Positions 40,999 to 48,052 of a stretch of DNA of 64,000 nucleotides are shown here, piece by piece. Below the pieces are notes generated by a model, which had not been told where the DNA came from, made no database searches, and saw nothing but the letters and a program-made list of their open reading frames with translations. The stretch comes from Escherichia coli (GTDB lineage: Bacteria > Pseudomonadota > Gammaproteobacteria > Enterobacterales > Enterobacteriaceae). The position numbers were made by a program, and so were the translations under genes. Positions within the stretch are counted from its first letter, which is position 1; the number at the start of each line of letters is the position of its first letter. The stretch lies in the NCBI RefSeq assembly GCF_009931435.1, contig NZ_CP043414.1, one strand, 5' to 3'.

Positions 40999-42186
40999 TT
41001 ACACAATTCGCGTAAAACCGGCGTCCAGATCGGCAATCAAATCATCGACATCTTCCAGACCAATATGCAGGCGAATCAAGGTCCCGCTAAAATCGATCTC
41101 GCCTTGTGGGCGAATGGCGGCGATATGTTCCGGTTGATTTGCCAGGATCAACGATTCATACCCGCCCCACGAATAGGCCATGCTGAATAAACTGAAGTTA
41201 TCCAGATAGTTCGCCAGCTCTTCATCATTGAGTTTTTTCTTAAGCACAAAGGAAAATAGCCCGCTGCTGCCTGTAAAGTCTCGTTTCCAGAATTCGTAGC
41301 CTTTACTGCCAGGCAGAGCAGGGTGGTTAACTCGCGCTACTTGCGGATGCTCTGCCAGCCATTCAGCCACTTTCAGACTGCTTTCATGATGTTGACGCAG
41401 GCGAACACCCAAAGTGCGTAGGCCACGGCTGGTTATATAGGCGGTATCGGCATCGACCATCTGCCCCATCAGATAGGCATTCTCCCGCAGCTGCTCCCAG
41501 CAACGGGCATTGCATACGGCAGTACCAATCATCGCATCTGAATGCCCCACCAGATATTTGGTGGCTGCCTGAATGGAAACATCGATGCCAAAATCCAGCG
41601 CCTTAAACAGCACACCGGCCGCCCAGGTGTTATCGATCATAATGATGGCATCTGGCACCACACTGCGCACGGCGGCAACAATCGCCGGAACGTCGTGGAC
41701 TTCCATGGTGATGGAGCCTGGCGATTCCAGAAACACGATTTTAGTGTTTGGCTGCACATGTTTAACGATATCTGCGCCAATCAGCGGATCAAACCACGAT
41801 GTCGTTACGCCCAGTTTGCTGAGGATTTTGCTACAGAAATCCTGACTCGGTTCATAGGCGGTGTTGGTCATCAACACATGATCGCCCTGTTCGACAAAAG
41901 CAAGAATGGAATTAGCAACCGCTGCTGCTCCGCAGGGGAACAGCACGCAGCCTGCGCCACCTTCCAGTTCGCACATCGCTTCTTGTAAGGAGAAATGGGT
42001 TAACGTTCCACGCCGTCCATAAAACAACTCGCCATTGGCGCGATTGCGTGTCGCGTGTTTTTTGGCTTCCACACTGTCAAAGACCAGCGAAGACGCGCGC
42101 TGAATCACGCTATTTACCGCGCCGAGAGTGTATTTTTTGCTGCGTCCTGCGTTCACCAGTTGAGTATCAAGCTTTTTGTCCGCCAT
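40999..42186 (-). CDS. metC: Cystathionine beta-lyase MetC, 395 aa
   Basis: ORF track frame; start at [18 protein letters not shown]-dependent enzyme. Confidence 0.9.
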
Positions 42187-42204
42187 GTCGGGATTCCTGT
42201 TTTT

Positions 42205-42228
42205 ATACGTCTGGATGTCTAAACTAGC
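42205..42228 (-). promoter_or_regulatory. Candidate tandem MetJ boxes upstream of metC
   Basis: atacgtct-ggatgtct-aaactagc, tandem 8-mers resembling the met-box AGACGTCT. Confidence 0.45.
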
Positions 42229-42350
42229 ATGAATATTCGCGGGCGCATCCTGAAGAATTAGCATAAAGCAGAAAATTTTCGCAAATGGCGTGCTGGTGAC
42301 TTTTTTACTGCGTAAACGCAAGGAAAAGAAAGCAAAGGTACGGCAGTATG

Positions 42351-42379
42351 CAAATAGTAATGAGAACGACTATCAATTC
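42351..42379 (+). promoter_or_regulatory. Candidate Fur box in exbB promoter
   Basis: caaatagtaatgagaacgactatcaattc, Fur-box-like AT-rich dyad upstream of exbB. Confidence 0.45.
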
Positions 42380-42437
42380 GACGTCGTTTTGATATTATTA
42401 TGCGCAGATTTTGTGACTTGCGTCCTGGAGATACACA

Positions 42438-43172
42438 GTGGGTAATAATTTAATGCAGACGGACCTTTCCGTCTGGGGTATGTATCAGCACGCCGATATT
42501 GTCGTTAAGTGCGTGATGATTGGGCTTATTTTGGCCTCCGTAGTCACTTGGGCAATCTTCTTCAGTAAGAGCGTTGAGTTCTTCAATCAGAAGCGTCGCC
42601 TGAAACGCGAACAGCAACTGCTGGCCCAAGCGCGTTCCTTGAACCAGGCCAACGATATCGCCGCTGATTTTGGTAGCAAAAGCTTAAGCCTGCATTTGCT
42701 CAATGAAGCGCAGGATGAGCTGGAACTGTCAGAAGGCAGCGACGATAACGAAGGTATTAAAGAACGTACCAGCTTCCGTCTGGAGCGTCGGGTCGCCGCC
42801 GTGGGGCGTCAAATGGGCCGCGGTAACGGCTACCTTGCAACCATCGGCGCGATTTCGCCGTTTGTGGGCCTCTTTGGTACGGTCTGGGGCATCATGAACA
42901 GCTTTATCGGTATTGCGCAAACGCAGACCACTAATCTGGCTGTCGTTGCGCCGGGTATCGCAGAAGCTCTGTTAGCAACGGCAATCGGCCTCGTGGCAGC
43001 GATTCCGGCGGTCGTTATCTATAACGTATTTGCACGTCAGATTGGCGGCTTTAAAGCGATGCTGGGTGATGTCGCAGCGCAGGTATTATTGCTGCAAAGT
43101 CGTGACCTGGATCTGGAAGCCAGCGCCGCTGCGCATCCGGTTCGTGTCGCCCAAAAATTACGCGCAGGATAA
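42438..43172 (+). CDS. exbB: TonB-system energiser ExbB
   Basis: ORF track 244 aa; MotA/TolQ/ExbB family. Confidence 0.9.
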   Translation: MGNNLMQTDLSVWGMYQHADIVVKCVMIGLILASVVTWAIFFSKSVEFFNQKRRLKREQQLLAQARSLNQANDIAADFGSKSLSLHLLNEAQDELELSEGSDDNEGIKERTSFRLERRVAAVGRQMGRGNGYLATIGAISPFVGLFGTVWGIMNSFIGIAQTQTTNLAVVAPGIAEALLATAIGLVAAIPAVVIYNVFARQIGGFKAMLGDVAAQVLLLQSRDLDLEASAAAHPVRVAQKLRAG

Positions 43173-43178
43173 TGTCCG

Positions 43179-43604
43179 ATGGCAATGCATCTTAACGAAA
43201 ACCTCGACGATAACGGCGAAATGCATGATATCAACGTGACGCCGTTTATCGACGTGATGTTGGTTCTGCTGATTATCTTTATGGTGGCAGCGCCGTTAGC
43301 GACGGTAGATGTGAAGGTGAACTTGCCTGCTTCTACCAGCACGCCGCAGCCTCGTCCGGAAAAACCGGTTTATCTGTCGGTGAAGGCGGACAACTCGATG
43401 TTTATCGGTAACGATCCGGTCACCGATGAAACAATGGTTACAGCGCTGAATGCGTTAACCGAAGGTAAGAAAGATACCACTATCTTCTTCCGTGCGGATA
43501 AAACTGTCGATTACGAGACGTTGATGAAGGTAATGGATACGCTGCATCAGGCGGGTTACCTGAAGATAGGTCTGGTCGGCGAAGAAACAGCCAAAGCGAA
43601 GTAA
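43179..43604 (+). CDS. exbD: TonB-system protein ExbD
   Basis: ORF track 141 aa; follows exbB. Confidence 0.9.
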   Translation: MAMHLNENLDDNGEMHDINVTPFIDVMLVLLIIFMVAAPLATVDVKVNLPASTSTPQPRPEKPVYLSVKADNSMFIGNDPVTDETMVTALNALTEGKKDTTIFFRADKTVDYETLMKVMDTLHQAGYLKIGLVGEETAKAK

Positions 43605-47576: not shown

Positions 47577-47864
47577 ATGAATAACCATTTTGGTAAAGGC
47601 TTAATGGCGGGATTAAAAGCAACGCATGCCGACAGTGCGGTTAATGTGACAAAATACTGTGCCGATTATAAACGCGGTTTTGTATTAGGCTACTCACACC
47701 GGATGTACGAAAAGACCGGAGATCGCCAGCTTAGCGCCTGGGAAGCGGGGATTCTGACGCGCCGCTATGGACTGGATAAAGAGATGGTAATGGATTTCTT
47801 TCGTGAGAATAATTCCTGTTCTACGTTGCGCTTTTTTATGGCCGGTTATCGCCTCGAAAATTGA
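47577..47864 (+). CDS. yghW: DUF2623 protein YghW
   Basis: ORF track 95 aa; position upstream of the hyb operon. Confidence 0.75.
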
Positions 47865-48052
47865 TCAAACATACGTATTATCTTGCTTTAATTAATTACA
47901 CTAATGCTTATTCCCTTCGTTTTAGTGCCCCGCCGCAGTATCATGATATCGATAACCATAATAAATGTGTGGTAAATGGCGCATCGATCGCATTATTGAT
48001 TTTGCGATTGAGGCAAAATATATGCCAGATCTTCGCAACGGAATAACTATAA

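Follow-up and report, generated by a model that had tools for sequence, protein, structure and literature searches.

The 251-bp intergenic region between metC and exbB of Escherichia coli is, with high confidence, a divergent control region that holds the known MetJ and Fur sites and serves two independently regulated promoters. The region with both operators is already known and experimentally characterised; our analysis establishes the motifs, their significance and their conservation, while protein binding and the regulatory outcome are taken from the literature.

The region occupies positions 42187-42437 of the window, i.e. the whole stretch of 64,000 nucleotides that was analysed, and corresponds exactly to the gap between metC on the minus strand and exbB on the plus strand, bounded by the start codons of the two genes, ATG for metC (complement of 42184-42186) and GTG for exbB (at 42438). 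K-12 MG1655 has an equal 251-bp gap between b3006 and b3008, and the two sequences differ across it by a single SNP at 42260. Of 5426 complete E. coli genomes, 5422 matched 42100-42520 in a megablast search, and the genes annotated at the match are metC and exbB. Published coordinates were converted as window position = 42438 + 3151984 - K-12 v3 coordinate; the U00096.2 coordinates of older papers run 1978 lower at this locus, an offset confirmed by the figure of Chen et al., in which site 3150076 lies at -70 from the exbB start. An Rfam scan of 41500-43200 (E up to 1) returned no RNA family, and two terminator-like matches from a generic terminator scan were ignored since both lie inside the metC coding sequence. 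The features referred to below are the following.

40999-42186, minus strand: metC coding sequence (cystathionine beta-lyase; K-12 b3008), from the ORF translation and the annotation in 5422 E. coli genomes
42205-42220, minus strand: MetJ operator of two abutting met boxes, 18 bp upstream of the metC ATG, called with the published MetJ matrix
42221-42229, minus strand: putative metC extended -10, TGCTAGTTT, which abuts the met boxes and has conserved positions in the 21-species alignment
42307-42326, no strand assigned: conserved block ACTGCGTAAACGCAAGGAAA, part of a conserved stretch that begins at about 42300 (TTTTTTACTGCGTAAACGCAAGGAAA, 42300-42326)
42322-42336, plus strand: predicted CpxR box GGAAAagaaaGCAAA, listed for exbB-metC in the supplement of PMC9600279 (score 9.98, at -102 and -136)
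42356-42380, no strand assigned: Fur operator, consisting of overlapping 19-mers (42356-42374 and 42362-42380), with a 9-1-9 core at 42359-42377, a 7-1-7 core TGAGAACGACTATCA at 42361-42375 and its centre at 42368
42390-42398, plus strand: putative exbB extended -10, TGATATTAT, with hexamer TATTAT at 42393-42398 and conserved pattern TGnTAYnAT
42427-42431, plus strand: exbB ribosome-binding site GGAGA, of which GGAG is invariant in the 21-species alignment (identity 0.92 over 42425-42431)
42438-43172, plus strand: exbB coding sequence with GTG start, from the ORF (K-12 b3006)
43179-43604, plus strand: exbD coding sequence, following exbB, from the ORF (K-12 b3005)

With regard to annotation, all E. 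coli records other than K-12 among the matches listed give exbB the RefSeq product name 'tol-pal system-associated acyl-CoA thioesterase'; this label was seen in 15 records under the megablast match and in further E. coli records. The K-12 gene is correctly named 'Ton complex subunit ExbB'. The other name is one that we take to be that of YbgC, not ExbB, and the label looks like a propagated product-name error.

The MetJ operator in front of metC

The tandem octamers that the original prediction placed just upstream of metC are indeed present, with the refinement that there are two boxes and no more. In the sense of metC they read AGACATCC (42220-42213) followed by AGACGTAT (42212-42205), which on the plus strand corresponds to ATACGTCT directly followed by GGATGTCT. 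A search for the double consensus AGACGTCTAGACGTCT with up to three mismatches gave one match in the 64 kb, at this very position, where 0.04 would be expected. We then applied the information weights and the acceptance rule of Augustus & Spicer 2011 (PMC3228920), by which each box is accepted from 3.15 bits, one quarter of the consensus score, and an array from 12.58 bits, the full consensus score. Box 1 scored 8.96 bits and box 2 scored 9.96 bits, giving 18.92 bits for the array, and 42205-42220 was the only site in the window to pass. Dinucleotide-shuffled versions of the window contained on average 0.65 passing sites of any score and 0.005 sites at 18.92 bits or above, and none of 5000 shuffles of the intergenic region reached this score. 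A third box was rejected, as the in-register flanking octamers scored -9.4 and -8.7 bits, so that the array consists of exactly two.

The same site is found in the K-12 b3008 entry in Table S1 of PMC3228920 (agacatccagacgtat, two boxes, 18 bp upstream, 18.92 bits) and is identical to that of the window. According to the same study, MetJ requires at least two adjacent boxes and gel-shifts the shared metC-exbB intergenic region, while a reporter for exbB is without MetJ regulation in vivo. Ec.metC was among the known E. coli operators assayed there; for metC, no numerical repression ratio is given in the text of that paper. MetJ sequestration is the subject of a bioRxiv paper dealing with metB upregulation in a ΔmetC strain; it contained nothing on the metC operator. 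The location of the boxes is typical, in the promoter/leader of a methionine gene, within the usual distance of about 75 bp from the start codon and abutting a conserved extended -10, and they provide one clear true positive for the MetJ matrix.

A further met-box-like sequence was noted on the other side of the region. The 8-bp palindrome CGACGTCG at 42379-42386 has a GACGTC core, is partly conserved and lies in the spacer of the exbB promoter, between the Fur box and the -10. As a MetJ site it was rejected, since it is solitary and scores about -0.9 bits (our own sum with the published matrix), below the 3.15 bits required of a single box.

The Fur operator in front of exbB

Symmetric Fur matrices were built by iterative refinement from 17 footprinted, gel-shifted or otherwise well-documented K-12 Fur sites, located by the coordinates of Chen et al. 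2007 and with exbB excluded. The matrix for the 9-1-9 alignment, which is the single-dimer geometry favoured by those authors, gave 18.1 bits for the core AATGAGAACGACTATCAAT at 42359-42377. This is the highest score in the window and lies well inside the training range (11.9-27.7 bits), with 0.017 such matches expected per shuffled window and a p of about 0.0005 for the intergenic region. The classical 19-mer matrix, on the other hand, was far less decisive. The site AGTAATGAGAACGACTATC at 42356-42374 agrees with the classical consensus GATAATGATAATCATTATC in 13 of 19 positions by our own count and scored a borderline 10.8 bits, which ranks seventh in the window (2.8 expected per shuffled window; p about 0.04 for the region) and is lower than for any of the 17 training sites (13.2-23.0 bits).

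With the classical matrix, a second overlapping site appears 6 bp downstream, at 42362 (8.6 bits), and weak sites are present 6 and 12 bp upstream, at 42350 and 42344, so that together they form a ladder with 6-bp steps, as is typical of multi-dimer Fur operators in E. coli. Its summed score of 19.4 ranks fourth in the window, with 0.23 expected per window. The AT-rich sequence TTTTGATATTATTATG (42387-42402) was rejected as a Fur site, as it scored 2.7 bits and is better explained by the exbB extended -10. Whether the sequence by itself is called a Fur site depends on the geometry of the matrix.

Chen et al. 2007 (PMC2189734) report a Fur site of 19.1 bits at -70 from exbB, which converts to window position 42368, the centre of the 9-1-9 core. 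In the same work an oligonucleotide with the exbB promoter site was gel-shifted by Fur, and a Fur site proposed earlier at exbD was found not to bind it. Gao et al. 2023 (PMC10164565) assigned a K-12 Fur ChIP-exo peak to exbB, seen solely in iron-replete conditions, at U00096.2 3150091-3150113. This interval corresponds to window 42331-42353 and adjoins the best Fur matrix site without overlapping it. The 36-gene core Fur regulon of the nine strains studied there includes both exbB and exbD, as does the Fur-2 iModulon, and the log2 fold changes of the two genes in Δfur ranged from 1.87 to 5.53 across these strains. The supplementary files of the study, in text form, did not contain metC.

The dyad upstream of exbB that had been proposed from the sequence is thus supported, strongly in the 9-1-9 alignment and far less so as a classical 19-mer. 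It had also been stated that both motifs agree with known regulation, and the gel shifts with MetJ and Fur, the Fur ChIP-exo peak and the derepression of exbBD in Δfur bear this out. Matrix scans had been named as the check: with scores below threshold for both matrices as the outcome that would have spoken against the motifs, the scans gave 18.92 bits against a threshold of 12.58 bits for MetJ and 18.1 bits, within the training range, for Fur. As to the suggested use of the region as a positive control for motif calls elsewhere, this works well for the MetJ matrix, but for Fur the site is awkward when thresholds are to be set, being good in the 9-1-9 alignment and poor as a classical 19-mer. 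It should be underlined that the exbB site is a true Fur positive that a strict classical 19-mer threshold would miss.

Two other places in the window gave strong Fur matches. One is 16876-16897 (also 16651-16669), with 16.9 bits in the classical and 16.1 bits in the 9-1-9 alignment, ranking first and second in the window. It sits between a gene for an ABC transporter ATP-binding protein and a gene for a TonB-dependent siderophore receptor, in a segment that is accessory (present in 1870 of 5426 E. coli genomes), and is probably the 'island Fur box' mentioned in the original prediction. By score, this accessory-island site is no worse than the proven exbB site. The other place is the hybO-yghW intergenic region, where ladder matches at 47939-47966 and 47802-47823 include the top ladder score in the window (22.5). 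A published K-12 Fur ChIP-exo peak assigned to hybO, at U00096.2 3144508-3144520, corresponds to about 47924-47936 and adjoins these matches.

Conservation of the operators and of a mid-region block

To follow the two operators across species, we used one ExbB scan of species-representative genomes, which yielded 80 loci: 67 in Enterobacterales, most of which have metC as the divergent upstream neighbour of exbB, and 13 in Pseudomonas. In an alignment of the intergenic regions of 21 Enterobacteriaceae, with identity measured to the E. coli base, the met boxes (0.94), the Fur ladder (0.95) and the segment 42387-42398 containing the exbB extended -10 (0.96) stand out clearly against the spacers (0.48 and 0.47). 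Within the genus Escherichia, an alignment that combined K-12 with E. albertii and two divergent strains of E. coli placed all substitutions outside the met boxes, the Fur site and both -10 hexamers. Identity over 42187-42240 was found in 5068 of the 5414 E. coli genomes with a match, and over 42347-42402 in 4218 of 5412.

The Fur box, TAATGAnAAYnACTATCAAt, was present upstream of exbB in 67/67 Enterobacterales loci and in 0/13 Pseudomonas loci. It is followed by TGnTAYnAT at a distance of 12 bp in 60 of the 67 loci and of 14 bp in five. The box is also kept where metC is not adjacent (Pectobacterium, Brenneria, Rahnella and Arsenophonus), and in distant genera it comes nearer to consensus, as exemplified by AATAATGATAATTACTATC with 19.9 bits. 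The met boxes are more restricted. They were seen in Escherichia, Citrobacter, Enterobacter, Kluyvera, Kosakonia, Cedecea, Shimwellia and relatives, and among the loci sampled they were otherwise confined to Enterobacteriaceae except for Serratia, where they occupy a different position; the loci sampled from Erwinia, Pantoea, Tatumella, Dickeya, Yersinia, Photorhabdus, Xenorhabdus and Providencia had no met boxes at metC. MetJ control of metC therefore appears to be clade-specific, in agreement with the 81 of 119 Enterobacteriales reported to carry met boxes at metC (PMC3228920). A deeply conserved Fur module on one side and clade-restricted met boxes on the other show that one half of a divergent promoter region can evolve independently of its counterpart.

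In several other genera the predicted ExbB is longer, about 308-398 aa compared with 244 aa in E. coli, owing to an N-terminal extension, and this extension accounts for the apparently long intergenic distances in distant genera. The genera concerned are Pectobacterium, Brenneria, Dickeya, Rahnella, Acerihabitans, Serratia, Rouxiella, Xenorhabdus, Providencia, Yersinia, Arsenophonus and Photorhabdus, together with one MAG (loci L046-L048, L051, L053, L060-L065, L067, L069-L077 and L079-L081). The Fur box and the extended -10 module are kept upstream of the longer gene. Such an extension has been described before, with 325 residues in Serratia and 244 in E. coli (PMC9008036).

Two other accounts of the operators can be judged against these data. 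According to one, the Fur-like sequence is a chance match in AT-rich DNA, and exbBD responds to iron indirectly or through another site. The 10.8 bits of the classical 19-mer, which fall within chance expectation for 64 kb, would fit this, as would a ChIP-exo peak that does not overlap the best site; but the 9-1-9 score is the top match of the window, the sequence is kept in all Enterobacterales loci at a fixed spacing to the -10, and Fur shifted an oligonucleotide containing the site (PMC2189734), which leaves coincidence with next to no probability. Hardly more credible is a single shared switch, in which control by MetJ extends to exbBD and/or that by Fur to metC. It draws on the fact that the two genes share one 251-bp region and that MetJ gel-shifts the fragment used for the exbB reporter. 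That reporter, however, did not respond to MetJ in vivo (PMC3228920), the distance from the met boxes to the exbB -10 further downstream is about 170 bp, and metC did not appear in the Fur pan-regulon files (PMC10164565, text form). Moreover, the Fur module accompanies exbB also where metC is not its neighbour, and many genera with the Fur box have no met boxes. Two separate operators, each serving its own promoter, is the reading that we retain.

Between the operators, a third conserved element was found at 42300-42326, with an identity of 0.82 compared with 0.47 in the neighbouring spacer (21 Enterobacteriaceae). The block lies 49 bp upstream of the Fur 19-mer in 24 of 24 carriers from Enterobacteriaceae (the window and 23 loci), whereas between the block and metC there are 108 to 153 bp, depending on the carrier. 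This fixed spacing on one side and variable spacing on the other indicate that the block belongs geometrically to the exbB promoter. Across the 70 bp upstream of the Fur box no indels were present in 26 genomes, and the sequence of the 18-20 bp between block and Fur box is not conserved. Erwiniaceae and the more distant genera sampled showed no such block, nor did Siccibacter (L022), Mangrovibacter (L057) and the MAG L039; in Pluralibacter gergoviae it is deleted. No similar motif was detected upstream of tonB, in the other Fur promoters examined or elsewhere in the window.

Readings of the block by eye as a hairpin/terminator, as sigma-70 promoters on either strand, or as a site for PurR, IscR (type 2), MarA/SoxS, FNR, CRP, PhoP or OmpR all failed. 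Its small palindrome has uncompensated substitutions in the left arm, which argues against a structural element. The predicted CpxR box overlaps the 3' end of the block, with just its first pentamer inside it. Zhao et al. 2022 (PMC9600279) observed changes in metC and exbB mRNA on Cpx activation, and the predicted box was not among their EMSA fragments. Myers et al. 2013 placed the centre of an FNR ChIP-seq peak at U00096.2 3150150, about window 42294, without an FNR-dependent change in expression. Neither the CpxR box nor the FNR peak explains the conservation pattern of the block.

The block might, tentatively, provide a third input to the region, adding to MetJ and Fur and not replacing them, with CpxR or an anaerobic factor as candidates. 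Its conservation, which is nearly that of the known operators, and its locked position relative to the Fur box speak for such a role, as do the overlap with the CpxR prediction, the mRNA changes on Cpx activation and the nearby FNR peak centre. Each candidate nevertheless meets difficulties: overexpression of nlpE lowers metC in ΔcpxR as well (0.08 vs 0.06), which argues against CpxR dependence; the most conserved bases of the block (CGCAA) fall in the would-be CpxR spacer; the CpxR box is a prediction outside the EMSA-tested fragments; and reading the block sequence revealed no FNR-like TTGAT-N4-ATCAA. The absence of the block from Erwiniaceae, distant genera, Siccibacter, Mangrovibacter and the MAG, and its loss in Pluralibacter gergoviae, likewise weigh against a third input. 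A more specific proposal, which we consider rather unlikely, is that the block is an uncharacterised, Enterobacteriaceae-specific operator for a second exbBD regulator bound on the same face of the DNA as Fur; the centres of block and Fur site are about 52 bp apart, roughly five helical turns. If this were true, the block would couple expression of the Ton system to a non-iron signal, for instance envelope stress or anaerobiosis.

Proposed promoter arrangement and relation to known operators

A generic sigma-70 scan of 42000-42600 gave no promoter, and the promoter assignments therefore rest on conserved extended -10 elements and not on a -35/-10 consensus. For metC, on the minus strand, the positions T42229, G42228, T42226, A42225, T42223 and T42221 are invariant or nearly so in the alignment and spell TGnTAnTnT, which covers the TG plus the -12, -11 and -7 positions of an extended -10. 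For exbB, the implied -35 with a 17-bp spacer is CTATCA at 42370-42375, inside the Fur 9-1-9 site. Transcription of metC would then start near 42214, inside met box 1, and that of exbB near 42405. The Cappable-seq and SMRT-Cappable-seq supplements, in text form, contained nothing for the coordinates or genes of metC-exbB. The exact promoter elements and start sites, and hence the steric mechanism set out below, are what we infer from these patterns.

In the proposed arrangement, two sigma-70 promoters with extended -10 elements stand back to back at a distance of about 190 bp. At metC, a pair of MetJ dimers with S-adenosylmethionine would bind the abutting met boxes cooperatively. As these start directly downstream of the -10 and cover the predicted start, MetJ would block initiation when methionine/SAM is plentiful. 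On the other side, Fe2+-Fur dimers would bind the overlapping sites at 42356-42380, which cover the -35 position of exbBD and the spacer upstream, so that RNA polymerase would be excluded when iron is sufficient. The model implies no cross-regulation between the two operators.

Compared with the MetJ operators of the E. coli met regulon (metA, metBL/metJ, metE/metR, metF, metK and metNIQ), the metC site is a published member. It shares with them the spacer-free tandem 8-bp boxes matching AGACGTCT near the start codon of a methionine-biosynthesis gene. The metC array is, however, of the minimum size, two boxes, whereas the other operators listed have two to four (four at metB/metJ, for example), and within Enterobacterales its boxes are phylogenetically patchy. 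Similarly, the exbB site is a published member when compared with the Fur boxes of the E. coli iron-uptake promoters (fepA-fes, fhuA, cirA, tonB, entC and fecA). It has the 9-1-9 inverted repeat and the overlapping sites offset by 6 bp in common with these, and would lie over the -35/spacer of a predicted sigma-70 promoter of the Ton system, but matches the classical 19-bp consensus less well than all 17 sites used for training.
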